Positions 5,881 to 58,225 of a DNA stretch of 64,000 nt are shown here, piece after piece (the first letter of the stretch is position 1; every line of letters begins with the position of its first letter). The position numbers and the translations under genes were made by a program. The stretch is from Candidatus Uhrbacteria bacterium (lineage in GTDB: Bacteria > Patescibacteriota > Patescibacteriia > JACQRZ01): positions 7,079-71,078 of the forward strand of contig JACQSB010000019.1 of assembly GCA_016206175.1 (NCBI GenBank). The letters run 5' to 3'. The notes beneath the pieces are model-generated. The model did not search any database. It saw nothing but the letters and a program-made list of their open reading frames with translations, and had not been told where the DNA came from.

Positions 5881-8800
5881 CTACTTATTAAAGTCATTAT
5901 CAGTGACAGTAGTGAGTGTTGATGTTGCTGATACTATCTGCACTGCAGCACACTGCCTTCGAAGCTTTGAGTCGGAGAAGAGCGGGTATTCATACACTCC
6001 GCAAAGTTCGTATTTCTCTTTTGCCGATGCCGTGGCGGGCACATTGATATACCCATAAGCAAATAATTTCTTCTCGACAAGCTTATCTTTTACATTATCA
6101 CCGAGTGCTATAACCGGAGGAGTTGTCGTACTCTGTTGCGGATCAAGCGGCATGGAAGCGCGGAGCTCTTTGCCGAGTTCCTGCGTCCACGAAGGCCAGC
6201 CGGAAACCGACTGGCTGCGAGTATAGCTCCCGGCCAAAAGCGCTGGATAACAGGTCGGATCACAGTGCGTGCGAACACGATACTGCTCCAGTTGATCGTG
6301 GATAAAGCTCATATGTGCCAATCGCTGGAAATCGCGCCGCAACGCTTTGGCGGCATCGGCATCAGTCTGGATTGTCGCCAACTGAATGGTACGCATCATC
6401 TCCGTAAATATGGTGCGTGTCTGTGCTTGCGGATTTGCGCTTGTTGTGAGATTTAAGATCCGATACGATGCAATTGATTTGTTTGATGCATGAAGGGTCG
6501 GCACGCTGATGTAGTATCCGGTCGAATCCTGCACTGCAGGAAAACCATTGATTACGGTGCTTGATGGCCGCTGTTTTGGATTAACTCTATTGTTCGCATA
6601 CCAGACATCCGGCGCAAGTTTGCTGGGATTATCATACACGCGCATGACGATAAGATCACTCGAAGTGCTAAACCGATAAAAATATTCTTCCAGCGGAGTT
6701 ACCGATCCCGTAGAAACCCGATCCTTGACAGATGTGGGGTCAGGCAGAAGAGCAGGCAGCGTGCCTGATTTTTTCGCCACACAGTAGGAAAGCCGGTATT
6801 GATATTTTCCTGAGGGATCGGTTGCTGTTCCTGAAGTTTGCCAGAGCTGAAAACAATCCTTCAAGGTGCACTGTTTGGCATCCCCTGGTGAAAAACATTG
6901 ATCCGAAGTCCATACTCCTGACGATATGTCGCACTGCTCCCCACCATCTACTTGACCATTGCCACAGTTGGTGGTTGGGGTGATTATCGGTTTTAATACA
7001 TCATTTACAAGCACAATCTTTGCTTGCTGGACCGTGCCGGCAAGCGGCAGTACGTATGCCGTAAGGGTGGCGCTGCCGGGTTGATTGGTATTTTCAATAA
7101 CGACAGTTGTCTCTTTGCCGGCACTGCCAACTTTTCTGACCTCACGAAATGCCGAACTATCGCTCAATTCCCAACGCACCTGCCGAATATCGCCATCCCC
7201 GAACAATGAATTATTTTGCGCGTGTATTCGGAGCGAATAACGATGCTGATTGCCTGCTCGGCTGCCAGCAGCCCCCTTGTCAGTATCATCTTCGCAACTA
7301 TCCGCTGTGCAGGAAAAACGATCAATGTCGATCGGCCGACCGTTGCTGTCGATGATAACTTTTTCGAAAATATTCGGATTGCCCTGCTTGTCCGGCGCAC
7401 CAACACACTGAATGGGATTACCGCCTGACGCGGTGCATGATTGATAGGGATGTTTATTCTCGATAGGAAGTGTAGCCGAACCTACGATGCCATCAGCCCA
7501 TGCGGTGACAATGCCAGTGCCGGTCGAGGTTGCTGATGCATCAAGCAAGGTTTGTATGGTAATGCGCTTCGCGCCAGAAGTTGCTGACAGGCGGTAGAGG
7601 TTATTCTTGTCCACTTTCCAATGCACGCGCGAGTCAGCAATCGTAAGAATATTTCCTTGGGAATCCTTCGCTTCGAACTCAAGCGCATGCTGATTGTCTT
7701 GGCCGCTTGAGATCGAATCATCAGTACATGCATTCCCTATGCAGCCAAAAGCATCCTGAGAAAGAAATTGCCCGTTTGATTTAATCCTCATGGAGCGAAT
7801 CTGTAATATCGATAATATATTCTCTACATTTATCTGCGCAGTAACTGTTTCTGCGGCTGCTCCGCCAACCGGTTTTAATGTTATACTTGCTGTCAACGTT
7901 GCGGGTGATGTTGTATTCACTTCGCTATTCGTCAAATATACCTCGGCATCTTTTGGCAAGAGCGTTCCTGCATTATCGGCTGTACGAGTAAGGGTGAAGG
8001 GTGAACCAGCGGAAAGCGCCCATTCAATCTTTTCAACGGCATTGAGGGAAATAAAACTGTTGTCTTTGCTGTGAAGGCGCAATGAGTATTTTCTCTGATT
8101 GCCGACAAATCGTGAGCTCTTATCGTTCGGGCAGGTATCACCAAAACAACCAAAGCGGTCAGTATCAACCGGCCTGCCATTCGCATCTATCACAGCAACT
8201 GATGAGGCTCCCGGCGATACGGATGGACCGCCTTCGCAATCAGAGCCGCTACCCAAACAAGTGGCACGAGGATGCTTGTTGTATATCGGAAGGTCAGCTG
8301 CCACTGTTCCGGTTGCGTTCGCAAGTGCGAGCCGTAGCTGCCCACTACCGGCAGAATCAGCATTCGTAAGCTGTATGGTTCTTCCTGCGCCTGATAGGCG
8401 CATTGCGGTTGTGGTAGCTGTAAGCTCCCATGTAATATCCCCGTCAGGGACAGTAACAGCTTTTCCGTCTGCATCGTAAAACTCTGCTGTGATGCGATGC
8501 TGGTTGCCGAACAAGGAGGTATTGAAATCATCCGCGCAAAAATTGCCGATACAGCCAAAAGCATCTGACGGCAGATAGTCGCCATTAGTTGATAGTTTGA
8601 TAGCAGAAATGGTGCGGATCGTGGCACCTGCACCGCAACTTGATGCGTTTGTGCCACATGTGTTCACGTCTTGGCATGATCCATTAACGAATTCTTTATG
8701 CGGCTTTGACTGTCCTGCTGAGCAACCGCCACCGCAACTTGATGCGTTTGTGCCACATGTGTTCACGTCTTGGCATGATCCATTAACGAATTCTTTATGC

Positions 8801-11800
8801 GGCTTTGACTGTCCTGCTGAGCAACCGCCACCTCCCGGATTCACTGTCACGATCACCTGCTGTCGTGCTGTTTCATTTTGCAATCCGGTTACTGTGACGA
8901 CAACCGTGGAGGTGCCGGCCTGATTTTTTGCCGTCACTTGGGTTGTAGCAGCGGACAATGAACTCACATCAACGACTGCTGTGGACGTTGCCGTCGGTCG
9001 GAGAGCAAGCCACTCTATCTTTGATGGCGATACTTCGATGTTATCCGCAGTATATGCCTTTAGGCGATAAAGATGCTGATTGCCGGTGCTCGACGCATTT
9101 TGATCATCGGCGCAACCGCTTGGAGTGACACAAGTGAATAAATCAGTAGTGGTGGCTACCGATGACGCGTTAATAAAAATCTCAACCCGTGTTATTCTGC
9201 CGACATCGGACGGTGGAGTTACGGGACCATCAGGCTTTTTGAGGCGAATTGATTTTTGACATTGCTCTCCAAACCATGCATTGCCTTCCTTCATTTGTAA
9301 CGTGAGATTGGCAGTGCCTTGTGAAGTAGGTGTATAAGGACGAACGCCAAATGTAATGCTGTCTCCCGGAGGAACCGTCCGCGACAGCGGTATCATATCA
9401 AGCTCAGGAAATTTGATTGAGCCGGATGAACGCAAAGCAAACATATGCGTAGCGGGATTCCATGTCTTTGTGCCGGCGTTTCTGAGAGAAAACTCTAGCA
9501 AGAAATCTTTATCTTCACTACTGATGAGCGGAAGCTCTTGCGCACGGCAGGCATTCGTACAAGCATTGATATTATCACGATCACCGTCATCGCATTGTTC
9601 CGACCCCTCTTTGATCCCGTTGCCGCATATGCCTTTATTGAACTTGCAATCCGTGCGACATTGATCAGCATTGGAGCGGTTGCCGTCATCGCATTGCTCT
9701 CCCGTTTCCACCGTACCGTTGCCGCAATAGGGTGCTGACGCATCGCGCAACATGCAATCATTCCGGCAGAGATTGGTATCAATCCGATCACCGTCGTCGC
9801 ATTGTTCCGATCCCTCTTTTGCTCCGTTGCCGCAATTTCCCGTATTCCATTTACAGTCATTCCGGCAGGTGTCTGTGGTAATAAAATTACCGTCGTCGCA
9901 TTGTTCGCCGATTGAAGATTCTACTGTTTTATTACCGCACCACGGAGTTTCTTGAGTTGCGTTGACGATGTTACATGTGTTTGTGCACGCATTGATATTC
10001 ACGTGATCACCGTCGTCGCATTGTTCGCCGGCTTCGATTACGCCATTGCCGCATGATCCTGGATTTGCGCGGCAAGAATTGGAGCAAGCATCATTATCGG
10101 TTGTATTTCCGTCGTCGCACTGCTCGCCGGTATCACGAATCCCATTGCCGCACAGAGAGGTTGGACGCGTACACGTCTTGCTGCATCCATCTCCGCTGAC
10201 ACGATTTCCGTCATCGCATTGTTCGCTGGTATCAAGCATGCCATTGCCGCAGTATCCTACGTCAATGGTGCAATCCGGACGACACCGCTCGCCCGAAAGC
10301 ATGTCAGATCCATCGCACTGCTCGCCTGTTTCTTTCACTCCATTGCCGCAATACGGCTGCGACGTATCGCGTAATGTACAATCATTCCGGCAGAAATTAG
10401 CATCAATTTTGTCGCCGTCGTCGCATTGTTCATCCCCTTCCCGTATCCCATCGCCACAAAATGGCTGTGAAGACGTAATTGTGCAAACTGCATCATTGAT
10501 AAATTGCGGCTGCAGGTCCACTGATGCCATACACATTTCACCGACAGGCATATCTCCCTCCATCAGCTGCCAGTTGAGCGCTTTTTTGCCGGTCACAGCA
10601 GGCGCAATAAGAGACACGTTCAGCTCGATAAACTCTCCCGGGGTAACTGTCTGCTTTGTTGAAGGAAATGTGATCGTGCTCTTTGACCAAAATGTGTTAT
10701 CGAGCGGGGATTGGGAGCGGACCGCAAAGGGCGGCGCGCTGGTGGCGTTCCATGATTTTGTTCCGGTATTTTCCAAACGGATGCGGGCAGTAAAAGGACT
10801 GCCTGTTGCCAGTTGAGCTCCAGATAATCGGATTGTTTGCGGAGCATTGATCGAACATCGCGCATTGTGCGCGGACACTACCCGCACGGTACAATTATTC
10901 ATACATTGATCCGAATCTATCCGATCTCCATCATCGCACTGCTCGCCTGCCTCTTGGATCCCATTGCCACAAAAGCTTTCGTTCGGCGCGCACGAATTTG
11001 TGCATGCGTTGGTATTGATTCTGTCACCGTCGTCGCACTGCTCCGATCCCTCTTTTGCTCCGTTGCCGCAGACGGGTGACTTTGAGCTTCCTGAACAATC
11101 GTTCTTGCAAGCGTCGTCGTTATTCTTATTCCCGTCGTCGCACTGCTCACCCTTCTCCACTTTGCCATTGCCGCAGACGGTCGGCGAAGTATTCAGCGTG
11201 CAATCGTTCTTGCATTCATTGGTTGTAATGCGATCACCGTCATCGCATTGTTCCGATCCCTCTTTTGCTCCGTTGCCGCAGAAGCCTGCGTTTGGCGTAC
11301 AATCGTTTTTACAAGCGTTGCTGTTATCGGGATCACCGTCATCGCATTGTTCCGATCCCTCTTTTGCTCCGTTGCCGCAGAAGCCGGGATTGCCGGCACA
11401 ATCGTTGCGGCAGGCATCGGTATTAACTGCATTACCGTCGTCGCATTGTTCCAAACCTTCTACAACAGAATTGCCGCAACGCGGACCAGTTCGATTGAAC
11501 GTACAATCATTCAAGCATACATTACTATTGACTCTGTCGCCGTCGTCGCACTGCTCTGTCCCTTCTTTCGTTCCGTTGCCGCAGAGTCCCGAACGAGGCG
11601 TACAGTTGTTGCGGCAGGCGTTCGCATCGTTTGTATCGCCGTCGTCGCACTGCTCTGTCCCTTCTTTTATGCCATTGCCGCAAAAACCGGAATTGTTGGT
11701 ACAATCGTTACGGCAAGCGTCGGTATGAACTGAATTACCGTCGTCGCATTGCTCAGGATCTTCACGTACATTATTTCGACAAACGGGTCCGCCTGGCGTG

Positions 11801-14800
11801 GCAAGGCTGCAATCATTGCGGCAGAGATTGGTGTCAATCGTGTCGCCGTCGTCGCACTGCTCGCCATCGTTTTTGATGCTATTCCCGCATCCAGTCGGAT
11901 TCGCAGTGCAATCGTTGCGGCAAGCGTCGGTATTGATCTGATTTTTGTCATCGCACTGCTCTGTCCCTTCTTTTATGCCATTGCCGCATTGGGGTGACGG
12001 GCCGCCTTTGATCGTGCAATCATTCCGACACGCATTCGCATCATCCTTATCGCCGTCGTCGCACTGCTCGCCGATATTGACGATCTTGTTTCCGCATCCC
12101 TCCGGGTTAGGAGCGCATGAATTAGTGCACGCGTTGGTATTGTTTTTATCTCCGTCGTCACATTGTTCGCCTGCCTCAAGCGCGCCATTGCCGCAAAAGC
12201 CCGCGTTGGGCACACAATCATTGCGGCACGCATTTGCATTGTCAGAATCGCCATCGTCGCATTGCTCGCCGAGCTCTCGAATGCCATCGGTGCAGATAGG
12301 ACGATTGGTATTGGTGATACAATTATTGCGACATTTATCGTAGTCAATGGTATTGCCATCGTCGCATTGCTCTGATCCTTCTTTCTTACCATTGCCGCAT
12401 TGATTCGCATTTGGCGAACAGGTGTTACTGCATGCATTGTTGTTATCTTTATCGCCGTCGTCGCATTGCTCTGCTCCTTCTTTTATGCCATTGCCGCAAA
12501 AACCGGATTTACCGGTACAGTTGTTACGGCAGGCATTTTCATTATCTTTATCGCCGTCGTCGCATTGCTCGCCATCATCAACTTTTCCATTGCCACAGTT
12601 CGGCGGATTCGGATTCACGATCTGGCATTCCGAACGAGTCGAGCAATCGCCGCACGAGCATGACTCATTTGTCTCGCATCGGCCGTTCGAATTGCAGGAA
12701 CCGCCGTTCCGAGGCGTGGTGACACGGACACTCTTTACGCATTGCTCGCCAAACCACGTGTCTTTATTCCGCAGCTGCCAGGCTAGTGCGTATGTGCCTG
12801 CTGCGGCAGGCGCCGTCACCTGTACAGAAACAGTGGACGCGCTTTTTGCTTGCACTGCCGAGGGCAACACTACGGATGTCCGACCCCAGAGATTCGTGTA
12901 CGGCGGCTGTTGACTGGAAAGCACATAGTCAGTGGTATTCCAGTTTGAAGTTCCGGTATTTTCGAATCGCATCTGCGCGGTAAATACTTGGCCGACCGTC
13001 ACTTCGGCAGGCGCGGTTATCGTACATCGCGCGTTGTCGGTCGGAAGCACAGCGATCGTTATTTTTCCTTGGCAGCTCTTCGTTTCAGCGCTACAGACAA
13101 AGCCAGTCTGGCATGAGCTTTGCTTGCCTGAACAATCGCCGCAGGAACAAGATTCGGTAGCATCACACACTCCATTTACGTTGCATGCAGTAGGCTTGCA
13201 TTGTTGATCCAACGGACTGCGGCATTGGCCGTCAGCGCATCGTGTAAGGCCTTCCGAACATGCACCGGTCGTCACGGTGTTTCCCTTGTTTTGACACGCA
13301 GCACCCGCTTGACAAGTAGAAGCAACACCGTTGCACGTAGTGCTTTCACCCGTACATTTTGATTTCGGACCACTGCATGACGAGCCGGCAGAACATAGTG
13401 AATTGCCGCCGGTACACTGCGTACCAATACCGGAACAGCTTGAATCGACGCCTGTGCATTTTGCGCCGTTTATGCAGCGCGATTCGGTACCCGTACACGT
13501 TGTGCCGGGATCAGAACATTGCGATTTGCTTCCAGTACAGGTTGATCCTTTTGTGCAGGAAGAGCCATTGCCTTCACATATGGTGCCAGCTCCGGAACAC
13601 GATGAATCTATGGCCTTACATTGTGAGCCATTGGAACATTGGGAACTAACGGTCAGGCATGTCTGTTTTGCTTTATCGCAAACAGCTGGTGTTGCAGTGT
13701 GCTGCGGCGGCCTACCAATGCATGCGGCGCCCGATTTGCATTCAGAGCCATCGCCGAGACAACGGGTCCCCAATCCGTCACAGCGGGAATTACTGCCGGA
13801 ACACTCGGCGCGATCGCGGCATTGTGATCCGCTATTGGTACATTGCGTATCAGTGCCGATGCATGTTGAACCGGCACCGGTGCATTTCGCGCCATCAAGA
13901 CATTTTGATCCGGCTCCGGTGCAAACAGTTCCCTTTCCGGAGCAAACTGCTGTCCCTCCGATGCATCGCGCTCCATTACTGCAAATTTCCCCTTCTTTTT
14001 TGCATACAGCACCCGGCGTACTGCACTTCTCTGAATCTTTCAGAGCACATGCGCCAAGCGTCCCGTTACCGGAAGCGGATTGGATTCCGTCCCCAAGCAC
14101 GACACGATAGGAGGTGCGGGCTGCCAGCGGTTGGCTGGGACGATAGGTAACCTCTGTCTTGGCAGAATCGCCGCTTCCTACTGTTGTTATCTCCATATCT
14201 CCGGAAGCTGCCGGCTCAATGCGGATATTAGGGCGGACTGAATCTTCACGAAGCATTTGATTAAAACGTACGCGGAACACGGAATTCCGATACACGCGAT
14301 CCGTTGGTTTTGGAGAAATTGATTCCACAGAAACGCAGCGTTTTGATTGGCCGCATACGCCGCCAACACAGTTGTTTGTGGAACACGCACGGTCATTGCT
14401 GCACTGCTCGCCGATCTTGCCTGATCCTGCTGCGCATACGCCGTTTTTACATGACCCAGACGCGCACTCACGATTCGCCGTACATGATTCGCCGATATCT
14501 TTGCCTGAAAGTGTGCAGGCACCTAATTCACATACGAGTCCCGATCGACATTGCGCATCAAACTCACATGCCGCATCAAGCTCGCCGCTGCCGCGAACGC
14601 AAACGCCGCCTTCACAGCGGCTCGATGAGCACTGGTCGTTTGCGCTGCACTGCTCTCCAATATCTTTCTTCTCGCCGGTAAAAAAATTCCACGTATACCG
14701 GCAAGCAACGACCTCTTGTCCGCATTGGCCGCTCGGCCGCAGAGAACCGTCCGAACAACACTGGATTCCTTGGCCGCCAGTGCCCGGCACACACCGCGAT

Positions 14801-15462
14801 GTAGAGCCAAGATTTACCGGATTGCTGATAGTACGAAATGAAGTGATGATCCGCAGCTTCGCAGGCGTTGCTTCAAGAGCCGGCATGAGTGCCGTAATCT
14901 TTGTGGCGGTCCATTCTGCGTCAGCTACGGGTATTTCTGTTGAGCCAGCAACGAGCCTCCCTTTATCATTTCCGAATCCAATTCCGTAAACCGTAAACGA
15001 GAGTCCCGGTGGCCCGTTATCCGGCTCCATGCCGCAAATGCCGGGATTTGGCGCAGCGCCGGTGACGACAAAAGGAACTGTATTGCTTGTTTTCCCATCG
15101 GCTGTTTTCAGCGATACGGTATAGCTGCCTTCTGAAATGCCGGCTGGGACCTTAACAATGACATAGGAATTGCGCCAATACAGCTTTTTACAATCGCCGA
15201 TAAAATCAATATCAGCAGGTACTGTTTGTCCATTTTTTGTAAAGGACACTTCTCCCGGCACGGAGCCAAGGTCGGAGCCATCAAGTGTAACGTACTGCCC
15301 TTTCCCTCCGGATGCTGGCCATGCTTTTGTAATTACGGTGGAAGCGCCGCCTTGCTGGGTATTCTGCTGGGCAGACACGAAGGAAAGCGCAAACAGTACT
15401 ACAAGCATGCTTGCGATGCCTGCAGTACTGCCGATAAAAAGTGATGCGATCTTGTATCTCAT
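5881..15462 (-). CDS. Giant (about 3193 aa) secreted multi-domain cysteine-rich repeat surface protein
   Basis: Single uninterrupted ORF. I prefer the ATG at 15462 (MRYKIASLFIGSTAGIASMLVVLFALSFVSAQQ, signal-peptide-like), which removes the overlap with the upstream gene. Contains IPT/TIG-like domains, Cys knots, a Cys ladder, 27 CGNGxxExGEQCDDG repeats, Ig-like domains, and about 480 aa of unknown C-terminal sequence. Confidence 0.9.
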   Translation of the reverse strand: MRYKIASLFIGSTAGIASMLVVLFALSFVSAQQNTQQGGASTVITKAWPASGGKGQYVTLDGSDLGSVPGEVSFTKNGQTVPADIDFIGDCKKLYWRNSYVIVKVPAGISEGSYTVSLKTADGKTSNTVPFVVTGAAPNPGICGMEPDNGPPGLSFTVYGIGFGNDKGRLVAGSTEIPVADAEWTATKITALMPALEATPAKLRIITSFRTISNPVNLGSTSRCVPGTGGQGIQCCSDGSLRPSGQCGQEVVACRYTWNFFTGEKKDIGEQCSANDQCSSSRCEGGVCVRGSGELDAACEFDAQCRSGLVCELGACTLSGKDIGESCTANRECASGSCKNGVCAAGSGKIGEQCSNDRACSTNNCVGGVCGQSKRCVSVESISPKPTDRVYRNSVFRVRFNQMLREDSVRPNIRIEPAASGDMEITTVGSGDSAKTEVTYRPSQPLAARTSYRVVLGDGIQSASGNGTLGACALKDSEKCSTPGAVCKKEGEICSNGARCIGGTAVCSGKGTVCTGAGSKCLDGAKCTGAGSTCIGTDTQCTNSGSQCRDRAECSGSNSRCDGLGTRCLGDGSECKSGAACIGRPPQHTATPAVCDKAKQTCLTVSSQCSNGSQCKAIDSSCSGAGTICEGNGSSCTKGSTCTGSKSQCSDPGTTCTGTESRCINGAKCTGVDSSCSGIGTQCTGGNSLCSAGSSCSGPKSKCTGESTTCNGVASTCQAGAACQNKGNTVTTGACSEGLTRCADGQCRSPLDQQCKPTACNVNGVCDATESCSCGDCSGKQSSCQTGFVCSAETKSCQGKITIAVLPTDNARCTITAPAEVTVGQVFTAQMRFENTGTSNWNTTDYVLSSQQPPYTNLWGRTSVVLPSAVQAKSASTVSVQVTAPAAAGTYALAWQLRNKDTWFGEQCVKSVRVTTPRNGGSCNSNGRCETNESCSCGDCSTRSECQIVNPNPPNCGNGKVDDGEQCDDGDKDNENACRNNCTGKSGFCGNGIKEGAEQCDDGDKDNNNACSNTCSPNANQCGNGKKEGSEQCDDGNTIDYDKCRNNCITNTNRPICTDGIRELGEQCDDGDSDNANACRNDCVPNAGFCGNGALEAGEQCDDGDKNNTNACTNSCAPNPEGCGNKIVNIGEQCDDGDKDDANACRNDCTIKGGPSPQCGNGIKEGTEQCDDKNQINTDACRNDCTANPTGCGNSIKNDGEQCDDGDTIDTNLCRNDCSLATPGGPVCRNNVREDPEQCDDGNSVHTDACRNDCTNNSGFCGNGIKEGTEQCDDGDTNDANACRNNCTPRSGLCGNGTKEGTEQCDDGDRVNSNVCLNDCTFNRTGPRCGNSVVEGLEQCDDGNAVNTDACRNDCAGNPGFCGNGAKEGSEQCDDGDPDNSNACKNDCTPNAGFCGNGAKEGSEQCDDGDRITTNECKNDCTLNTSPTVCGNGKVEKGEQCDDGNKNNDDACKNDCSGSSKSPVCGNGAKEGSEQCDDGDRINTNACTNSCAPNESFCGNGIQEAGEQCDDGDRIDSDQCMNNCTVRVVSAHNARCSINAPQTIRLSGAQLATGSPFTARIRLENTGTKSWNATSAPPFAVRSQSPLDNTFWSKSTITFPSTKQTVTPGEFIELNVSLIAPAVTGKKALNWQLMEGDMPVGEMCMASVDLQPQFINDAVCTITSSQPFCGDGIREGDEQCDDGDKIDANFCRNDCTLRDTSQPYCGNGVKETGEQCDGSDMLSGERCRPDCTIDVGYCGNGMLDTSEQCDDGNRVSGDGCSKTCTRPTSLCGNGIRDTGEQCDDGNTTDNDACSNSCRANPGSCGNGVIEAGEQCDDGDHVNINACTNTCNIVNATQETPWCGNKTVESSIGEQCDDGNFITTDTCRNDCKWNTGNCGNGAKEGSEQCDDGDRIDTNLCRNDCMLRDASAPYCGNGTVETGEQCDDGNRSNADQCRTDCKFNKGICGNGIKEGSEQCDDGDRDNINACTNACRAQELPLISSEDKDFLLEFSLRNAGTKTWNPATHMFALRSSGSIKFPELDMIPLSRTVPPGDSITFGVRPYTPTSQGTANLTLQMKEGNAWFGEQCQKSIRLKKPDGPVTPPSDVGRITRVEIFINASSVATTTDLFTCVTPSGCADDQNASSTGNQHLYRLKAYTADNIEVSPSKIEWLALRPTATSTAVVDVSSLSAATTQVTAKNQAGTSTVVVTVTGLQNETARQQVIVTVNPGGGGCSAGQSKPHKEFVNGSCQDVNTCGTNASSCGGGCSAGQSKPHKEFVNGSCQDVNTCGTNASSCGAGATIRTISAIKLSTNGDYLPSDAFGCIGNFCADDFNTSLFGNQHRITAEFYDADGKAVTVPDGDITWELTATTTAMRLSGAGRTIQLTNADSAGSGQLRLALANATGTVAADLPIYNKHPRATCLGSGSDCEGGPSVSPGASSVAVIDANGRPVDTDRFGCFGDTCPNDKSSRFVGNQRKYSLRLHSKDNSFISLNAVEKIEWALSAGSPFTLTRTADNAGTLLPKDAEVYLTNSEVNTTSPATLTASITLKPVGGAAAETVTAQINVENILSILQIRSMRIKSNGQFLSQDAFGCIGNACTDDSISSGQDNQHALEFEAKDSQGNILTIADSRVHWKVDKNNLYRLSATSGAKRITIQTLLDASATSTGTGIVTAWADGIVGSATLPIENKHPYQSCTASGGNPIQCVGAPDKQGNPNIFEKVIIDSNGRPIDIDRFSCTADSCEDDTDKGAAGSRAGNQHRYSLRIHAQNNSLFGDGDIRQVRWELSDSSAFREVRKVGSAGKETTVVIENTNQPGSATLTAYVLPLAGTVQQAKIVLVNDVLKPIITPTTNCGNGQVDGGEQCDISSGVWTSDQCFSPGDAKQCTLKDCFQLWQTSGTATDPSGKYQYRLSYCVAKKSGTLPALLPDPTSVKDRVSTGSVTPLEEYFYRFSTSSDLIVMRVYDNPSKLAPDVWYANNRVNPKQRPSSTVINGFPAVQDSTGYYISVPTLHASNKSIASYRILNLTTSANPQAQTRTIFTEMMRTIQLATIQTDADAAKALRRDFQRLAHMSFIHDQLEQYRVRTHCDPTCYPALLAGSYTRSQSVSGWPSWTQELGKELRASMPLDPQQSTTTPPVIALGDNVKDKLVEKKLFAYGYINVPATASAKEKYELCGVYEYPLFSDSKLRRQCAAVQIVSATSTLTTVTDNDFNK
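8631..8832 (-). repeat. Perfect 99-bp tandem duplication (2.04 copies) inside the giant gene
   Basis: 8631-8733 is identical to 8730-8832 at an offset of 99 bp. It encodes GGGCSAGQSKPHKEFVNGSCQDVNTCGTNASSC twice, in frame. Confidence 0.95.
9547..10458 (-). repeat. Array of 9 CGNGxxExGEQCDDG(D/N)xxxxDxCxxxC cysteine-rich repeats (second array)
   Basis: Units of about 33-38 aa read directly from the translation. The pattern matches what I recall as the Myxococcus cysteine-rich repeat family (TIGR02232 / DUF4215-like). Confidence 0.85.
10890..12597 (-). repeat. Array of 17 CGNGxxExGEQCDDG(D/N)xxxxDxCxxxC cysteine-rich repeats (first array)
   Basis: 17 consecutive units. Includes an exact 55-bp DNA repeat (11232-11286 = 11331-11385) between neighbouring units. 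Confidence 0.85.
13072..14024 (-). repeat. Cysteine-ladder region of the giant protein (about 48 Cys in about 318 aa, 27-residue super-period)
   Basis: Cys spacing reads 7,7,6 / 7,7,7,6 x3 / a 14-residue break / 7,7,6 / 7,7,7,6 x4. Example: CTGAGST CIGTDTQ CTNSGSQ CRDRAE. Confidence 0.9.
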
Positions 15463-15475
15463 ATGAAATGAGTGC

Positions 15476-17155
15476 TCAACGAACTTGGGGAGAAGGCCCC
15501 GTACACGGATTGTAGCAATTCTGATACACATCTCGCGCTGAAGCTCGAACTTCCGGCTGATAAAGCTGGTCCTTTTTCAAAGGATCATGTTGTATGCGAG
15601 CGTGCGTTCGTGTTGATGTCGCATCTTGTTCTGATTCAACCCAATAGCTCACGTCATTACTCAGATAGATGGAACTCTGATGCAATGAGTTCAAATCCAT
15701 GTATTTTGAAAACGTGATATCAATCGGCGCCGTTACATCGACTTTCGTACCATCACGCCGCGGATTGACGGATTCGATTGATGGCGGCGTCACTTCGAGA
15801 TTCTTTATTATGGTAAATGTCCAGACAAAATTATCCGCGGGCGGACCATCCGCTTTTCCATTGCGGTCAGCGCCGTTCTTTCCCCCACCGTCAAGAGAGT
15901 TGCCGGCTGCATCCACGATTCCATTATACGGATACGCAGCTCGATGCGGGCTTTCCTGTGTACGCTGCTGCGCTAACGTCGCAGCTTTGAGAGAAACTTG
16001 ATATCTCCCTCCTTTTTCCGGAAAGCAATATACCGGCTCTTTGCAGTTATTCGTACCGCACAGCTCGCGCGGCACGAATGTGACTGTCCGATATTGATTG
16101 CCGACAAGAATCGTTCCGGCGATCAACGCCCCAGTTTCAAGATCTTGCACTGATATTTTTTCGCCGCTTACCAGCGAAGGATCGAGCGCTTCAGAAAAAG
16201 TGATTTGAACTAACGCATTGCGCGCAACGCTTAATTCTTGATCCTGTAACGGAATAGTTGGGAATACATGAGTGATGCGCGGCGGCTCGTTATCAACAAG
16301 TCCGCTCACTTCGAATTGCCAGGAATACCCGCCCGTATTTCCAAAAAGCGATTCTCCGCCCGATGTCAGCACGGAGCTCATCAAAGTCACACCATATAAC
16401 GAAGTAGCATCAGGTATGCCAAGAAGATTTATGGGAGAAATCACCACTGTCTTGCTGTCATCGCTCACGGTAACGTTGGCAGGAACGCTGAGCCCATCGG
16501 GAGTTGGCGTTGGAGAAATTTGGTAGAGCCGTATGCTACTCGAAATCAAAGTCCCGTCTTCTGCGCGAATACTATTCGCACGGATCGCCTCCCGGAATGT
16601 AATAAGGATCTTTACATTCCGGGGTATATTTTTTTCATCGCGGGCAGGATAATGCGTTTCAATTCGCGACTGTTTGCTTTGATACTCTCCAAAATATATC
16701 GGCTGAGATATGTCGGCAGCCTTAAACGGAGGCGGCGTTTCTTTTGTATATGATTGCGCAATTCGTGAATAAATAATGGTGATAACCCCGAAAAGCACCA
16801 ATCCAATAACTGCTATCATCGCACCAAGAATAAGATTCCGTTTTGCCGATGCCTCTGCGCCAAGGTCTTCATCTTCTCGAGCAGAGCGCAGACGTACAAA
16901 TCCAAGAACAGCAACAGTGATACCGATAAGCGTTGTGATGATCCATACTCCTTGCAAGATGCGCAATACAATAAGGCGCGTGTCATTTACCGGCAATCCA
17001 AGCACGCGCGCAAACCCGCTCACCTCTTGGGCGTATGCCGGAAACACGAGCAACGTAAAAAATAAGACTGCAATACCCCCTATCGAAAGAAAGGGAATAA
17101 AGCGATATCTTTTTTTGTTGGCGCGCATCCGGAGCGCATGGGTATGCTCTGACAC
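15476..17155 (-). CDS. Polytopic N-terminal anchor plus extracellular Ig-like (SbsA_Ig/Big_5-like) domain protein
   Basis: 559 aa, GTG start at 17155. Three N-terminal TM segments, then repeated segments such as PPRITHVFPT...VQITFSEALDPSLVSGEKISV and PPSIESVNPRRDGTKVDVTAPIDITFSKYMD, typical of bacterial Ig-like domains. Confidence 0.7.
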   Translation of the reverse strand: MSEHTHALRMRANKKRYRFIPFLSIGGIAVLFFTLLVFPAYAQEVSGFARVLGLPVNDTRLIVLRILQGVWIITTLIGITVAVLGFVRLRSAREDEDLGAEASAKRNLILGAMIAVIGLVLFGVITIIYSRIAQSYTKETPPPFKAADISQPIYFGEYQSKQSRIETHYPARDEKNIPRNVKILITFREAIRANSIRAEDGTLISSSIRLYQISPTPTPDGLSVPANVTVSDDSKTVVISPINLLGIPDATSLYGVTLMSSVLTSGGESLFGNTGGYSWQFEVSGLVDNEPPRITHVFPTIPLQDQELSVARNALVQITFSEALDPSLVSGEKISVQDLETGALIAGTILVGNQYRTVTFVPRELCGTNNCKEPVYCFPEKGGRYQVSLKAATLAQQRTQESPHRAAYPYNGIVDAAGNSLDGGGKNGADRNGKADGPPADNFVWTFTIIKNLEVTPPSIESVNPRRDGTKVDVTAPIDITFSKYMDLNSLHQSSIYLSNDVSYWVESEQDATSTRTHARIQHDPLKKDQLYQPEVRASARDVYQNCYNPCTGPSPQVR

Positions 17156-17179: not shown

Positions 17180-17431
17180 CTACAGCTTCATGAGAGCCTT
17201 TGTCCCCGGAAATTTATCTTTCAGCTTTCCGATTTTTTTAAGATAGTCTTTTTTCTCTTCAATCATCCTGCGGCGCAATGCAGTCGTCTGCTTTTTTGCA
17301 GCGCTTTTTTTCCGGGAAAAATAACGAATCTTTTTTACTTGCAATATCCGTCCGCTCTGCTGTATCTGGCGATTGAATCTTCGCAGCAGTGCTTCAAACG
17401 ATTCTTTTGGTTTTCTTCGTACTTCTGGCAT
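17180..17431 (-). CDS. rpsU: 30S ribosomal protein S21
   Basis: MPEVRRKPKESFEALLRRFNRQIQQSGRILQVKKIRYFSRK fits the S21 pattern. Preceded by AAAGGAGGGTGACGA-ATG, one of the few strong SDs on a core gene. Confidence 0.85.
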   Translation of the reverse strand: MPEVRRKPKESFEALLRRFNRQIQQSGRILQVKKIRYFSRKKSAAKKQTTALRRRMIEEKKDYLKKIGKLKDKFPGTKALMKL

Positions 17432-17434
17432 TCG

Positions 17435-18850
17435 TCACCCTCCTTTCTGTTGTTCACCGAGCGCTCCATTGAGTTTCCTGCGAAGCGTTGGTATCAATTT
17501 TTTGATATCGATAACCTCCTGCTCTCCGCCTTCCATATTCCGGATGATAATGCTTCCGTCAAGCAATTCTTTCTGGCCGAGAATAATGGTAATAGCAGCA
17601 TTGCATTTATTGGCGAGTTCCAGCTGCGCTTTCAGGCTGTCTTTTGCAAATTCCGCGGCTACCGTAAAACCCTCACGCAACAGATCTTCATAGAGCACCA
17701 TTGCCCGCCGTTTTGGCTGTTCGCCGAGCTGCGCTACAAAAATTTCCGGATTAACGCGTCGAGGGATTAATTTCGTGCCGCTCGCTCGTTCGAGTTCTTT
17801 TATCTTCATGATTACTCGCTCAATGCCGATGCCAAAACCGGCAGCCGGCGTACTCTGACCGCCAAACATCTCAATGAGATCGTCATAACGCCCGCCGCCG
17901 CCAAGAGCAGCCATACGTGCCGGCTGCGTATCAGACTCGTCCGTATTCATGAGTGCGTAAAACTCGAAAACGGTACGTGAGTAGTAATCCAATCCACGCA
18001 CTAAGTGAGGATTTGGCTGATAGGGAATTTCAAGTTCATCAATGCATTCCAGCACAGAGATAAAATGGTCGCGGCATGGTTCGCATAAAGAGTCAACGAT
18101 CGGCGGCGCTTTTGCAATCAAGCCTTGGCATGTCTCAACTTTACAATCAAGGAGTCGAAGCACGTTTTTGTTTAATCGGCGCTTGCAGTCTTCACATAAT
18201 GATGCCCGGCGCGCACGATAATATTCTACAAGTGATTCGCGGTATGCGGGACGGCACGACCGACAACCGATGCTATTCACTTGCACCAACGGTTTGATGT
18301 GCAGGGATGTCAATAATTTATAACCAAGCAATATCAATTGCCCGTCAATAACCGGCTTGCCTTCACCGATCACTTCACAGTTCCATTGCGTGTGCTGACG
18401 CAATCTTCCTTCCTGGGGTTTCTCGTGGCGAAAGAGAGGCCCGAATGCATAGAGCTTCACCGGCTGCGGCAGTGATACCATCCCGTGCTCGATATAGGCG
18501 CGAGCTATCCCAGCCGTAAACTCGGGACGCAAAGCAAGCGTATCTCCGCCTTGATCCGTGAAACTATACATTTCTTTTTCGACAATATCCGTTTGTTTCC
18601 CCAGACCGGCAGTATATAAATTCAAATGTTCCACGATCGGAGTATCAATGCGGGCAAAACGGTAATCGTCTCCAATCTTAGCAACGATTGACCGAATGTG
18701 GTCCCAATACAGTTGATCGTGAGGCAGCACGTCTTTCATGCCCTTCACAAGCTGCGGTTGCTTGCTTAACCGCGCTATCCCGCTACTGGGCTTCTCGATC
18801 TGTTTCGTTGCTTCTTCTGTTTTTTTTATTCGTGGCATGGATCGTGCCAA
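17435..18850 (-). CDS. hisS: Histidine--tRNA ligase
   Basis: Class II motifs: GMKDVLP, FRHEKPQEGRLRQHTQ (motif 2) and GGGRYDDL (motif 3). The track start at 18850 is TTG; ATG at 18838 is an alternative. Confidence 0.93.
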   Translation of the reverse strand: MARSMPRIKKTEEATKQIEKPSSGIARLSKQPQLVKGMKDVLPHDQLYWDHIRSIVAKIGDDYRFARIDTPIVEHLNLYTAGLGKQTDIVEKEMYSFTDQGGDTLALRPEFTAGIARAYIEHGMVSLPQPVKLYAFGPLFRHEKPQEGRLRQHTQWNCEVIGEGKPVIDGQLILLGYKLLTSLHIKPLVQVNSIGCRSCRPAYRESLVEYYRARRASLCEDCKRRLNKNVLRLLDCKVETCQGLIAKAPPIVDSLCEPCRDHFISVLECIDELEIPYQPNPHLVRGLDYYSRTVFEFYALMNTDESDTQPARMAALGGGGRYDDLIEMFGGQSTPAAGFGIGIERVIMKIKELERASGTKLIPRRVNPEIFVAQLGEQPKRRAMVLYEDLLREGFTVAAEFAKDSLKAQLELANKCNAAITIILGQKELLDGSIIIRNMEGGEQEVIDIKKLIPTLRRKLNGALGEQQKGG

Positions 18851-29913: not shown

Positions 29914-29970
29914 TGTAATCAGTGAAAGTACGTGGTCTTTATAACCTGATGAGTCTTATTATACCGTCCG

Positions 29971-30061
29971 TGACAGTAGATACAAGCATACGGATTGCTT
30001 CCTATACTTGTATCTACTGTCAATGGATCGTGGCACAACGGAATAGCAATGTCGCTATTCC
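29971..30061 (+). promoter_or_regulatory. Two hairpins in the leader of the 30083 ORF
   Basis: Perfect 16-bp inverted repeat tgacagtagatacaag (29971-29986) / cttgtatctactgtca (30007-30022) with a 20-nt loop. Second hairpin ggaatagc (30040-30047) / gctattcc (30054-30061) with a 6-nt loop. This is followed by the SD GAGGAGG and ATG at 30083. Confidence 0.5.
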
Positions 30062-30082
30062 TTCATAGAGGAGGACCCCGAT

Positions 30083-30637
30083 ATGTCCCGCACTGCAAAG
30101 CGGGAGAGGGAGGAACTTCAGATGACAGCACTGCGGTACATCCGACGGATGCTGCCGTATCTGCTCGTCGAGGTTTCCGAAACGGCCGAGTTTAAGGACC
30201 AGAAGGCGTATCAGAGCTTTCTGCAAATCTTGCAGGTTATCAACGAACCTGCAAAGCTCGCAGAAATCGGGTACTATCGGCATCTCGTACGGAATCATCC
30301 TGTTCCGTGCGTGACACTGAACAAGACCCGGCAACGCCTAACAGCGACATTCCGCCTTCAGCTCGAGCTTGAGCTGACAGCGAAATGCGGACTCGTAACA
30401 CGGCTGTACCCGGTACGGCTCCAGGTATCAATGGAAGGAAATTTCGCCACAAAGGAGTGGCGGCAAGCGCGCGTCAGCGTGCGGCTTCCTTCCCGTAAGG
30501 TGCCTGCGAAAACACCGGGGAAATCCCGCGAGGAATGGCCGAGGCTTCTCGAGTTTACTTGTACGCTCGTAAGGGTGTATGACGAGGAATTCCTCGTCAA
30601 AGAAGTGAACAAGGAACGCCTTGAAGAAGCGCTGTAA
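30083..30637 (+). CDS. Hypothetical protein, no recognisable motif (orphan cassette 1)
   Basis: 184-aa ORF. Canonical SD (aGAGGAGGaccccgatATG) and a strong intrinsic terminator downstream. It is a lone plus-strand gene between minus-strand dprA and pitA. Confidence 0.6.
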   Translation: MSRTAKREREELQMTALRYIRRMLPYLLVEVSETAEFKDQKAYQSFLQILQVINEPAKLAEIGYYRHLVRNHPVPCVTLNKTRQRLTATFRLQLELELTAKCGLVTRLYPVRLQVSMEGNFATKEWRQARVSVRLPSRKVPAKTPGKSREEWPRLLEFTCTLVRVYDEEFLVKEVNKERLEEAL

Positions 30638-55000: not shown

Positions 55001-55102
55001 CGTACCTGCGCCGGCAACAATAAGCAGCGGACCGGCGGGAGCCATTACCGCTGCCCGCTGTTCCTCATTAAGATCGCTGAGAAGAAAATCAAGAGATGAC
55101 AT
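52076..55102 (-). CDS. UvrD/PcrA-type superfamily 1 helicase fused to a C-terminal Cas4/AddB-like PD-(D/E)XK nuclease
   Basis: About 1008 aa from the ATG at 55102. AGAGTGKT (Walker A), VDEFQDTN, TIHASKGLEF, VALTRAR. The C-terminal module has C-x(n)-CxxCxxxxxC (TTCPLQYKF ... CKSCDFRDICEY) and IDRIDR...IIDYKTG. Confidence 0.9.
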   Translation of the reverse strand: MSSLDFLLSDLNEEQRAAVMAPAGPLLIVAGAGTGKTTVITRKIAWLILSGTCKPDEILAVTFTDKAAGEMEERVDRLLPYGYVNLWIMTFHAFCERILQRHGLDIGLPNDFKLLDQTSAWLLVRQHLDRFKLDYYRPLGNPSKFIHALLNHFSRAKDEDISPETYIEYAQNKTLDTDQETADAAGDELKRIREIAEAYHIYQQLLLEKNALDFGDLITYTLRLFQKRPALLERYQKQFHTVLVDEFQDTNHAQYQLIKMLASPRNNLTVVGDDDQAIFRFRGASYHNILQFKKDYPTSREIALTQNYRSCQNILDCSYQFIKRNDPHRLECQLAEYGSTARGSERGEQSRELSKRLTAHHDSVGVISHIHCATLEEEVERVIEKIIEMKNSKPDSLWSDNAILVRANTTAQPFIARLSELEIPYQFLSLRGLYAKPVIIDVLAYCRIVVNYYEGPSLYRVLSWPCFHINTASLIELGHAAQQKGTSLWEACNKTETLNRIEKKDRETISQITGFVQKHAGLARSRHCVELLVHILRDTGYLSFLKDADTLEKRDALDYLNQLYKKMSAFQTEYPDARLKDFLELLSYEQEAGDSGKLRIGSDSGPDAVKIMTIHASKGLEFPHVFIVNMVDRRFPTVEREDAIALPDDLIREIVPEGDVHLQEERRLFYVALTRARESIYLSSSQDYGMARAKKPSVFLYEVGVLEKGLDALKMGKEKTLDEVAAVAPSQVQTNGQHPFVLPTVYSFTQLTAFTTCPLQYKFSFLLKIPVFGKAQFSFGKTIHLALQRYVEQIIERGSRAQADLFGAEKKEYTDSEAASYPPFEDLLAHYERSWHDDWFVNARQKEEYRAKGRALLKTFYDELIREQPRPYAVEQEFTMKISVGDSAITIKGRIDRIDRVEGGIAIIDYKTGEGKKGDALSSQDKEQLVLYQLAVEEVMHEKPLSLTYYYLGSGRKISFLGTEKEKHALTQRIAKTVAALKNSDFAPTPGWHCKSCDFRDICEYRQL

Positions 55103-55198
55103 AGTGCCTAAAAGTATACCGACCGCATTGCCCTTTACGCAAGATGTTGCCTGCGGTATCTTTATCATTATACAAATATCGTGCAGAGGAGGTAACAA

Positions 55199-55387
55199 AT
55201 GAGCACGGTGCTCTGGGCTGTCGTGTGGGCAGCAACCTGTTATTTTTCTTTTCAATGTGGCATCGCTGTAGCCTGCCAAGCATTGGCAAAGGTTTCAAAG
55301 ACGCCAATCAAGATCCTTTTCCCTGTACGTATTCTGTTCGTTCTTTTTTGTTTTATTGGAGCAATCATACTGCTAAAAGTTCTCTAG
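55199..55387 (+). CDS. Small 2-TM membrane protein (orphan cassette 2, gene 1)
   Basis: 62 aa. SD gcaGAGGAGGtaacaaATG. Two hydrophobic helices (VLWAVVWAATCYFSFQCGIAVAC and ILFVLFCFIGAIILL). Confidence 0.55.
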   Translation: MSTVLWAVVWAATCYFSFQCGIAVACQALAKVSKTPIKILFPVRILFVLFCFIGAIILLKVL

Positions 55388-55411
55388 GATCATGTGAAAG
55401 GAGGCTCGCTC

Positions 55412-56074
55412 GTGCCAACCGGAGAAATGACGGATCCTGTATCCGTCGAAAAACGGCTCGCGGAAGGGCGCGAGCTGACCAAGCCGTTCGCTCCCCCTCC
55501 GCCACCCCGGCCGCCGATTACAAACAAGCTTTCCGGACCTGAAGAAGGGCCGGATAAGCGCCGGATGAGGTATCTCGTCCGACGGGCGCTGTTCGCTTTC
55601 GAGGAAGCCAATGGCCTTTGTCCTACGTTGCAAAATCTCCTCCCGGATTTTGCAAAGACGTGTCGCCTAGTCAACCTTCCCAACGTTCACGAGAGCATCA
55701 TTGTGGCACTTCGCGACAAGCTCGCTGAACTTCACGACCAAGACGCTCCACTGGCAGATATTCCTGAAGATGACAGCGAGCAGCTTGCCATGCAGTATCT
55801 TGGCGAGATCCCGGGGCCTTCTTCCGTAAGTAAAGAAGCGGCTCTTCTGTCCGCCGGAGACATCGGATCGCTTGCGCGGCGTCTTGATCTGGTGTCTGGG
55901 AGGAATGATTACGCGGAAACGATCCTGAAGACCCTGCAAGGATCGGCGTTCCCGCACCAAGACACGGTCGGGGAAATCCCTGCCACGAACCCTGATCGCA
56001 ACGCCGGCGGACTCGACTGGCTTACCAAAGCGCTTCGCACCCTCTTCGGTGGAAGAAAGCAGCGAGAAGCTTAA
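55412..56074 (+). CDS. Hypothetical protein with a proline-rich N-terminus (orphan cassette 2, gene 2)
   Basis: ORF open from 55394. I prefer GTG at 55412, preceded by AAAGGAGG with a 7-nt spacer; ATG at 55427 is the alternative. Contains PFAPPPPPRPP. No recognisable domain. Confidence 0.6.
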   Translation: MPTGEMTDPVSVEKRLAEGRELTKPFAPPPPPRPPITNKLSGPEEGPDKRRMRYLVRRALFAFEEANGLCPTLQNLLPDFAKTCRLVNLPNVHESIIVALRDKLAELHDQDAPLADIPEDDSEQLAMQYLGEIPGPSSVSKEAALLSAGDIGSLARRLDLVSGRNDYAETILKTLQGSAFPHQDTVGEIPATNPDRNAGGLDWLTKALRTLFGGRKQREA

Positions 56075-56099
56075 GGGTAGAACTCTTCAGGAGGTCCAC

Positions 56100-56288
56100 A
56101 TGCAACTCGAACACGTTCGGAGGAATACGCGAAATCTTCCGGACAATGAAATAAGCAGACTCGTCGATACCATCTTGGATAACCCTGAAAGGGCCCCACA
56201 GCAGGAGCAGGCAAAGGATGTTCCTCAATCGAGGAGGCTGCGCGGGGGGAGACTGCTAGCGGTTCTCAGGATATTGCGGCGGCCATGA
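56100..56288 (+). CDS. Small basic protein with an Arg/Leu amphipathic C-terminus (orphan cassette 2, gene 3)
   Basis: 62 aa from the ATG at 56100, preceded by cAGGAGGtccacATG. C-terminus is RRLRGGRLLAVLRILRRP. Followed by a terminator. Confidence 0.5.
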   Translation: MQLEHVRRNTRNLPDNEISRLVDTILDNPERAPQQEQAKDVPQSRRLRGGRLLAVLRILRRP

Positions 56289-56321
56289 AACGCCCCATTC
56301 GTTCTTCGCACCACACACTAC

Positions 56322-56358
56322 GCGCGCCGTGCTCTTCCGGTGCGCTTCTTTATTTCTC
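56322..56358 (+). terminator. Intrinsic terminator of orphan cassette 2
   Basis: gcgcgccg (56322-56329) / cggtgcgc (56338-56345), 8 bp with 1 mismatch, then ttctttatttctctt. Confidence 0.55.

Positions 56359-58225
<1,867 letters not shown>

Follow-up and report, generated by a model that had tools for sequence, protein, structure and literature searches.

Three small plus-strand open reading frames, ORF1, ORF2 and ORF3, lie between a helicase gene and atpC in a 64-kb stretch of a groundwater Candidatus Uhrbacteria genome (candidate phyla radiation, CPR; Patescibacteria), which is called the window below. This cassette is probably a genuine, vertically inherited and taxonomically restricted operon of a small Candidatus Uhrbacteria clade, and not a mobile or defense cassette. 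Its core gene keeps one chromosomal position in seven lineages, and all of its genes begin behind strong Shine-Dalgarno (SD) sites. An earlier, sequence-only reading of the locus had described these sites as textbook examples; their strength is confirmed, but they are exceptional for this genome rather than routine, a point which that reading missed.

Organization of the locus

The ORF1-ORF2-ORF3 locus is one plus-strand transcription unit that runs from a promoter-like site to a terminator. Its neighbors are both on the minus strand, the helicase gene (Pfam UvrD-helicase, UvrD_C and PDDEXK_1) starting with an ATG at 55102 and atpC, the right-hand flank, ending with a stop codon at 56359. These flanks agree with the sequence-only reading, as do the positions of the three frames: ORF1, a small membrane protein of 62 amino acids (55199-55387), ORF2, a cytoplasmic protein of 220 amino acids with a GTG start (55412-56074), and ORF3, an accessory basic protein of 62 amino acids with a net charge of +5 (56100-56288). 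The frames are separated by only 24 nt (ORF1-ORF2) and 25 nt (ORF2-ORF3), and the scan found no terminator-like site between them on the plus strand. The unit is closed at 56322-56355 by an intrinsic terminator, also correctly recognized before, in which a hairpin (GCGCGCCG/CGGTGCGC, 56322-56345) of eight pairs, seven of them G-C, precedes a T-run; the terminator scan reports it, and a hairpin with a T-run occupies the equivalent position in all orthologous loci of the cassette.

At the other end, the promoter-like site proposed earlier is present at 55147-55174 of the plus strand, with TTGCCT (55147-55152), a 16-nt spacer and TATACA (55169-55174). Read from the sequence as a putative promoter, it was not reported by the consensus promoter scan of the window, since the last T is missing from its -10 hexamer. 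Even so, the two closest relatives retain the -35 hexamer and the spacing, with TTGCCT-16-CATACA in L002 and TTGCCT-17-TATAGT in L004 (L numbers denote the contigs and loci compared), and the spacer sequence differs. Rfam gave no match in the cassette region at E<=1.

The assembly is sound at this place. Two independent contigs, L001 (run SRR12113385) and L010 (run SRR12113390), are 100% identical to window positions 55024-57037 and 55572-56777, respectively, and together span both junctions, which excludes the chimeric contig that the earlier reading had wished to see checked.

Distribution, synteny and selection

ORF2 is the conserved core gene of the cassette, ORF1 its usual upstream partner, and ORF3 a downstream gene of a few lineages. 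Among 5.8 billion protein clusters ORF2 has five relatives, and an ORF2-family profile run without a word filter against 1.84 billion protein representatives recovered only three proteins, all of them family members. The gene was found in one species-representative genome and two metagenome contigs, its homologs are annotated as Candidatus Uhrbacteria, as is an AtpC (P0012) 100% identical to the one in the window, and viral contigs, phages and plasmids contain no relative of it.

Counting the more distant loci, ORF2 occurs in seven lineages (the window, L002/L003/L007, L004, L005, L006/L008, L009 and L018), always between the helicase gene and atpC. Wherever the flanks exist (L002/L003/L007, L004, L005 and L009) the layout is the same: helicase gene on the minus strand, cassette on the plus strand, conserved terminator, atpC on the minus strand. 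The most distant member, L018, was reached through AtpC homologs (AtpC 72% identical) and carries in the same place and orientation a gene of 204 amino acids, together with an GAAAGGAGGCT block and the terminator; its product is too diverged for HMMER, and hhalign aligns it with the ORF2 profile over 125 columns with a probability of 94% and an E-value of 1.2e-7. ORF1 accompanies ORF2 in five of the seven lineages (the window, L002/L003, L005, L006 and L009; 40-74% identity) and is absent from L004, where an 86-bp gap takes its place, and from L018. The trio thus does not co-occur as a fixed set, as the earlier reading had suggested checking: ORF1 is missing from two of the seven lineages and ORF3 from five. 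One and the same chromosomal position in seven lineages with saturated synonymous sites speaks for vertical inheritance and not for a patchy mobile distribution, the pattern typical of lysis, toxin and abortive-infection modules.

The proteins are under selection. The ratios of nonsynonymous to synonymous differences (pN/pS) were obtained from Nei-Gojobori counts with synonymous sites at or near saturation, so that the true ratios are lower than those counted. They amount to 0.23-0.55 for ORF1, 0.15-0.46 for the N-terminal half of ORF2 and 0.36-0.91 for its C-terminal half. Since ORF1 and the N-terminal half of ORF2 stay below 1, both are protein-coding and constrained by purifying selection, and the conservation as coding sequence for which the earlier reading had asked is borne out. 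The C-terminal half of ORF2 is loosely constrained and variable in length. In the same genomes, identity to the window is 93-98% for AtpD, 87-90% for AtpC, 77-82% for the helicase and 43-54% for ORF2, which is therefore a fast-evolving protein, several times faster than its neighbors, in a slow-evolving neighborhood, and still under purifying selection. Two further observations concern its sequence. The L009 copy contains at 1190-1387 a 105-nt in-frame tandem duplication of LSGKDxQELxRRLGAVPESERIQQIRD, with copies 88% identical, and the divergence between L006 and L009 is mosaic (synonymous difference 0.76 for the N-terminal and 0.31 for the C-terminal half), which suggests recombination within ORF2 between lineages.

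ORF3 is the weakest of the three gene calls, and an unlikely alternative would make it, and conceivably ORF1 as well, a chance open frame in the untranslated regions of a single-gene ORF2 transcript. The only homolog of ORF3 is a 65-aa ORF that occupies the equivalent place in L005 and is 37% identical over 57 aa (tblastn against the local set, E 1e-5). ORF3 is missing from five orthologous loci, its position being empty in L002, L004, L009 and L018, and gene calling passed it over on the identical Logan contig. A single saturated pair underlies its pN/pS of 0.52. A profile search with ORF1 and ORF3 concatenated was empty as well, but is uninformative, since it also failed to recover the known members P0007-P0009 present in the collection. 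Against this alternative, ORF1 is conserved in five lineages, under the constraint given above and with its SD kept in each, and ORF3 stays open, with every indel in frame and an SD site, in both the window and L005, which the similarity of ORF1 and ORF2 places in different sub-clades. The latter distribution implies that ORF3 is probably old and often lost. In L006, an unrelated hydrophobic 74-aa ORF (1096-1320) stands at the ORF3 position, overlapping the ORF2 stop by 4 nt (ATGA) and having no SD, so gene content evidently turns over at the downstream end of the operon.

Shine-Dalgarno sites as an exception in the genome

All pairing energies given here are predictions against the canonical 16S tail CCUCCUUUC. 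The SD of ORF1, GAGGAGG at 55186-55192, pairs at -13.6 kcal/mol, and its equivalents in L002, L005, L006 and L009 at -12.2 to -13.5 kcal/mol. That of ORF2, GAAAGGAGG at 55396-55404, pairs at -15.6 kcal/mol (orthologs -12.5 to -17.8 kcal/mol). No other non-coding block of the locus is as well conserved, and all seven orthologous loci have the ORF2 site, even the distant L018. For ORF3, AGGAGG at 56089-56094 gives a predicted -11.5 kcal/mol. The spacings read earlier hold for ORF2 (AAAGGAGG-7-GTG) and ORF3 (AGGAGG-5-ATG), but the ORF1 site lies 6 nt, not 7, before its ATG.

Ordinary genes look entirely different. For 46 confident genes of the window, every in-frame start within the first 41 codons was considered; a strong SD precedes none of these starts, and weak motifs occur in only three of the genes. 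In L002, L004, L012 and L014, SD sites were found in none of 60 non-cassette genes with independently called starts, whereas every cassette gene has one. The median pairing energies of the two sets of ordinary genes, -3.8 and -3.2 kcal/mol, compare with -4.2 kcal/mol for random 25-mers and are thus random background; genes led by an SD pair at -11.5 to -18.2 kcal/mol. Ordinary starts lie in a G-poor, A/T-rich context, and 67% of 86 genes have a T immediately before the start codon (position -1). Several of these starts (e.g., 19727, 40706 and the helicase start at 55102) follow a TAnACT-like -10 box at a distance of about 0-10 nt, and such adjoining boxes suggest leaderless mRNAs or mRNAs with very short leaders.

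The whole window was also scanned for GGAGG 4-10 nt before a start codon. Once hits lying within longer genes had been removed, along with short frames of 29-94 codons overlapping a confident gene in another frame or on the opposite strand, five ORFs were left: ORF1, ORF2, ORF3, an orphan ORF of 184 amino acids at 30083, and rpsU. The last, on the minus strand (gene 17180-17431; with its SD, 17180-17451), encodes an 83-aa bS21 identified by Pfam Ribosomal_S21 (PF01165; 27.7 bits against a cutoff of 27) and by 25 PDB sequences of bS21/S21 at E<=0.05 (26 at E<=1). It is the only housekeeping gene of the window with an SD, an extended one (AGAAAGGAGGGTGA, -18.2 kcal/mol) that sits within the end of hisS, the rpsU start lying 4 nt past the hisS stop. 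The orphan belongs to what the sequence-only reading counted as a first cassette (cassette 1, region 29958-30637). Its feature spans 30066-30637 of the plus strand, with GAGGAGG 8 nt before the ATG and a pairing energy of -12.1 kcal/mol; the ORF has the highest G+C content at third codon positions (GC3) in the window (0.627, z 2.6) and no Pfam domain.

A leader element common to both cassettes had been proposed. The window does contain the pattern ATTATAC-N4-6-CGTG exactly twice, at 29958 and 55167, where 0.06 sites would be expected, but the enrichment test is circular because the pattern came from those same two sites, and beyond the -10 box the element is not conserved in the orthologous loci. 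This -10-like ATTATAC...CGTG stretch is all that cassettes 1 and 2 have in common. Paralogy between them was considered when a local tblastn search (no composition correction) matched ORF2 with the antisense strand of cassette 1 at E 0.001, and hhalign did not confirm it (probability 2.5%); the cassette 1 protein, compared with ORF2, showed no relation.

The window contains no rRNA gene. The conserved block GAAAGGAGG extends the core SD exactly as the complement of CCUCCUUUC, an indirect hint that the host has a 16S tail of canonical sequence and uses it.

Origin of the cassette and the atpC-helicase interval

Strong SD sites in an otherwise SD-less genome might also be the mark of a foreign cassette, acquired horizontally from a phage or an SD-using bacterium together with its own SD signals and slightly higher G+C and merely tolerated by the host. 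GC3 gives this alternative some room: ORF2 lies slightly beyond the top of the housekeeping range (0.588, z 1.9) and ORF3 near it (z 1.6), the other genes having 0.49 +/- 0.05; but ORF1, at 0.444, lies below the genome mean. No donor emerged from the searches of 5.8 billion and 1.84 billion proteins, nor from viral contigs, phages or plasmids. The SD blocks themselves are the best-conserved non-coding bases across lineages saturated in synonymous divergence and are therefore maintained by selection in these hosts, and a core gene, rpsU, shares the trait. Marks of integration are likewise lacking, as flanking repeats or att sites in the window are limited to matches of chance size, no integrase is encoded there, and the only tRNA gene is 35 kb away. 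An integrated mobile element or genomic island would be expected to have an integrase or transposase, an anomalous composition, and either flanking direct repeats or a tRNA gene as target; of these, the cassette shows a mildly raised GC3 only. Taken together, a foreign origin of this kind is quite improbable.

Two other points have been counted in favor of foreign origin. One is a pair of inverted, palindromic repeats of about 80 nt, resembling miniature inverted-repeat transposable elements (MITE; GTCATCCCCGA...TCGGGGATCCAAATCC), which bracket ORF1-ORF2 in L009 (338-416 and 1600-1670) and at both ends in L006. They have 32-nt arms that are 91% complementary, are located in both intergenic regions, and the repeat of L009 is absent from the window. 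The other is that the contents of the slot vary among Uhrbacteria clades. Between atpC and the helicase gene, L012 and L014 encode a serine hydrolase, unknown proteins, a methyltransferase, a LexA-like S24 peptidase, a HigB/helix-turn-helix (HTH) pair and DinB, and in L016 and L019 other small ORFs. None of the slot genes of these four is related to ORF1, ORF2 or ORF3; the 204- and 205-aa unknown proteins adjoining atpC in L012 and L014 were considered as ORF2 relatives, and the comparison showed no relation. Different genes in this interval of distant Uhrbacteria mean that the slot has changed its contents over long evolutionary times. The earlier description of the cassette as inserted therefore has support from the outgroups and none from the window, in the form of repeats, an integrase or a nearby tRNA. 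The cassette is the occupant of the slot in one clade, vertically inherited within it.

Among the outgroups, L012 (6497-12384) and L014 (6471-10896) carry a same-strand set with the LexA-like S24 peptidase, DinB (IMS family) and an ORF of about 100 amino acids that overlaps the helicase start, and this set looks like a cluster of SOS/mutagenesis type that ends in the helicase gene. The L014 slot additionally contains the HigB(Gp49)/HTH toxin-antitoxin pair. Elsewhere in the window, a single ORF of 3216 amino acids extends over 9.6 kb of the minus strand (5881-15531); giant proteins are common in CPR genomes.

The encoded proteins

The absence of any recognizable motif, remarked on at the outset, has withstood sequence, profile and structure searches. 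None of the three proteins matches anything in Pfam, NCBIfam, PHROGs or PADLOC at E<=1; a Pfam search with all sequences of the ORF2 alignment was empty even at E<=10, and so were single-sequence and profile searches of PDB. The AlphaFold2 (AF2) model of ORF2, built from a five-sequence alignment, is poor overall (mean predicted local distance difference test, pLDDT, 56.8), and Foldseek found no match for it below E 0.1 in PDB and BFVD.

ORF2 is a cytoplasmic, mostly helical and partly disordered protein, with no signal peptide and no transmembrane segment. Its start is fixed by orthologs beginning with M-[PT]-T-G-E-M-T-D. The N-terminal peptide, MPTGEMTDxxSVxKRLxEGREL (residues 1-22; 55412-55477), is the most widely conserved segment and is still recognizable in L018; residues 9-17 form a short helix in the AF2 model, at low confidence. 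It is followed by the proline tract PFAPPPPPRPP that the sequence-only reading had pointed out (residues 25-35; 55484-55516), a linker predicted to be non-helical in which P29-P32 are invariant, and by a three-helix core (residues 47-107; 55550-55732), the only confidently modeled part. The core consists of helices 47-76, 78-87 and 89-107, with pLDDT of about 77-84 for residues 51-100, and includes the invariant block RYLxRRALFAFEEA. Next comes an acidic motif, P-x-x-D-x-P-x-D-D-x-E-Q-x-A-M-x-Y-L-G-E-I (residues 113-133; 55748-55810; in ORF2 DIPEDDxEQLAMQYLGEI), whose invariant columns are P113, D116, P118, D120, D121, E123, Q124, A126, M127, Y129, L130, G131, E132 and I133, and which is partly kept in L018. 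Residues 134-200 (55811-56011) evolve fast, vary in length and are probably disordered (pN/pS 0.6-0.9 against the window, pLDDT mostly <50). The protein closes with an amphipathic helix (LDWLTKALRTLFG; residues 201-213; 56012-56050), in which W203 is invariant, and a basic tail.

This C-terminal helix has a hydrophobic moment of 0.61-0.80 in six orthologs and is absent from L018; the membrane-targeting helix of Escherichia coli FtsA reaches 0.78 in the same calculation. Like the C-terminal membrane-targeting helices of MinD and FtsA it is short and amphipathic, with its invariant tryptophan and basic tail in addition, and it may by inference bind the membrane, but the resemblance is not one of homology. 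Several other likenesses of ORF2 were dropped. Foldseek matches to ESCRT-III, Mediator and coiled-coil chains were dismissed as generic helical matches. A membrane-remodeling protein of the PspA/ESCRT-III type would have a long alpha1-alpha2 hairpin fold and match the PspA_IM30 or Snf7 profile; ORF2 has no Pfam match, and the ESCRT-III chains in Foldseek have E above 1 and probability below 0.1. The sequence YLGEI...LSGED..ELSRRLG, which by eye recalls sigma-70 region 1.2 or an HTH, has no profile support.

ORF1 had been read as a protein with two transmembrane segments. It does contain two hydrophobic segments, split by the basic loop AKVSKTPIK; the second is a clear transmembrane helix (Kyte-Doolittle 19-residue mean 2.7), but the first is only moderately hydrophobic (1.2-1.8). 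In ORF3, the C-terminal Arg/Leu stretch RRLRGGRLLAVLRILRRP is present as described, but the segment of highest moment comprises residues 16-28, and in the L005 homolog it is the C-terminus. One could picture ORF1 anchoring or partnering ORF2 at the cytoplasmic face of the membrane, where ORF2 would act as an adaptor composed of an N-terminal docking peptide, proline linker, three-helix core, acidic motif and C-terminal amphipathic helix. We regard this membrane arrangement as doubtful.

More doubtful by far is the reading of the trio as a lysis, toxin-antitoxin or abortive-infection module, in which a holin- or pore-like protein, a regulator or effector and a cationic peptide would jointly kill or arrest the cell on phage attack or as an addiction system. 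The likeness that prompted it is real as far as gene sizes and physico-chemistry go, since such modules are also compact operons of small genes with a small membrane protein and a small basic one; the HigB/HTH pair of L014 shows that accessory or defense-type genes do land in the slot, and ORF2 evolves as fast as many conflict genes. In family, fold, context and mode of inheritance the cassette differs from them. Family searches were empty, viral contigs, phages and plasmids contain no relative, and a fold of muralytic, nuclease or toxin type was not found either. Holins are small proteins of phages or prophages that have one to four transmembrane segments and end in a highly charged tail. ORF1 ends in ...LLKVL, without the charged tail of typical holins, has no PHROG match and no phage genes nearby, and neither ORF2 nor ORF3 contains a muralytic domain (lysozyme, amidase or peptidase) at E<=1 or yields any structural match. 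A type II toxin-antitoxin system would combine a known toxin fold with a DNA-binding antitoxin, for which Pfam, NCBIfam, PADLOC and PDB gave no sequence or fold match, and would be inherited patchily as a mobile unit, whereas the cassette is fixed in position in its seven lineages and its gene set is not, the partners having been lost independently of ORF2. The anti-phage defense models of PADLOC-DB 2.0 contain no family for any of the three proteins at E<=1. With a strictly syntenic position across lineages saturated in synonymous divergence, this interpretation is the least credible of those considered and can be set aside as very improbable.

Implications for translation in Candidatus Uhrbacteria

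The vertically inherited operon described here finds its closest parallel, as regards the way it would be translated, in another phylum. Ribosomes of Bacteroidia have kept the anti-SD but sequester it by bS21, bS18 and bS6, and the genes lack SD sites (PMC7797042, PMC9976891, PMC13000453); rpsU, in contrast, has retained an SD of extraordinary strength, and bS21-deficient ribosomes mediate its autoregulation (Jha 2021, PMC7797042; McNutt 2023, PMC9976891; Naeem 2026, PMC13000453). In the Patescibacteria genome studied here and in its relatives, ordinary genes are similarly SD-less with A-rich, G-poor starts, throughout the sample of about 106 genes (weak motifs in 3 of 46 and in 0 of 60). The rpsU SD is unusually long (AGAAAGGAGG..., -18 kcal/mol against the canonical tail), which is the signature of rpsU in Flavobacteriales; an extended SD in the Bacteroidia sense has at least 10 base pairs and an energy below -13 kcal/mol, and AGAAAGGAGGGTGA is of this kind. 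The two systems differ in that rpsU is essentially the only SD-led gene of Flavobacterium johnsoniae, whereas at least four further genes, all orphans, are SD-led within 64 kb here. Among Parcubacteria, an anti-SD motif was detected in only 48% of 16S genes (PMC9297842). Neither an SD-led minority class nor an SD of rpsU is described in the CPR literature that we covered; this coverage is incomplete, and novelty is thus unproven.

The cassette would be translated via SD/anti-SD pairing, and we give roughly equal weight to accepting and to doubting that it is, and is therefore part of a small, separately controlled translation class. By analogy with Bacteroidia, such a class may possibly be read preferentially by ribosomes with an exposed anti-SD, e.g., those lacking bS21, a tentative idea that we hold less firmly. 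Somewhat more speculative still is the complete scenario, a clade with Bacteroidia-like SD-independent translation in which the anti-SD is normally unavailable and a small regulon is read only by specialized ribosomes with an exposed anti-SD, such as those without bS21. That regulon would comprise rpsU and a few fast-evolving orphans, including ORF1-ORF2-ORF3 and the cassette 1 ORF. If this is true, the orphan cassette would be a ribosome-state-dependent accessory module in a CPR bacterium, and the bS21 circuit would extend beyond pure autoregulation and beyond Bacteroidota.

Several considerations weigh against the interpretation developed above. The pattern would also arise if the anti-SD were exposed and a minority of genes made ordinary, unregulated use of SD sites. 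The pairing energies assume that the 16S tail of the host is canonical, and the SD survey covers one 64-kb window and about 60 genes of relatives (the 106 or so ordinary genes mentioned), not a whole genome. With a GC3 that slightly exceeds the range of housekeeping genes, ORF2 might have been acquired from a foreign source long ago. As for the proteins, the poor overall quality of the AF2 model means that the domain picture of ORF2 rests mostly on conservation, and a membrane-anchored ORF1-ORF2 complex cannot be essential to the role of ORF2, because L018 lacks both ORF1 and the C-terminal helix and L004 lacks ORF1.

The genomes of the CPR phylum are rich in hypothetical proteins, and the cassette taken alone is ordinary for such a genome: one more taxonomically restricted operon, a documented and selection-tested orphan family. 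It shares with other restricted CPR genes a homology confined to a narrow clade, small fast-evolving products and a location in a variable interval between housekeeping operons, and its orthologs HYV71_03455 and HYV71_03460 of GCA_016188385.1 are annotated by NCBI as hypothetical. It is set apart from other hypothetical genes of this kind by documented coding status, synteny, selection and operon signals, and by distinctive translation signals. The lead most worth following is the SD-led class within an SD-less genome. If the dichotomy holds genome-wide, CPR bacteria would provide a second, independent instance of SD-restricted or ribosome-state-dependent translation, and SD strength would become a simple means of picking out co-regulated orphan genes that are otherwise uninterpretable.

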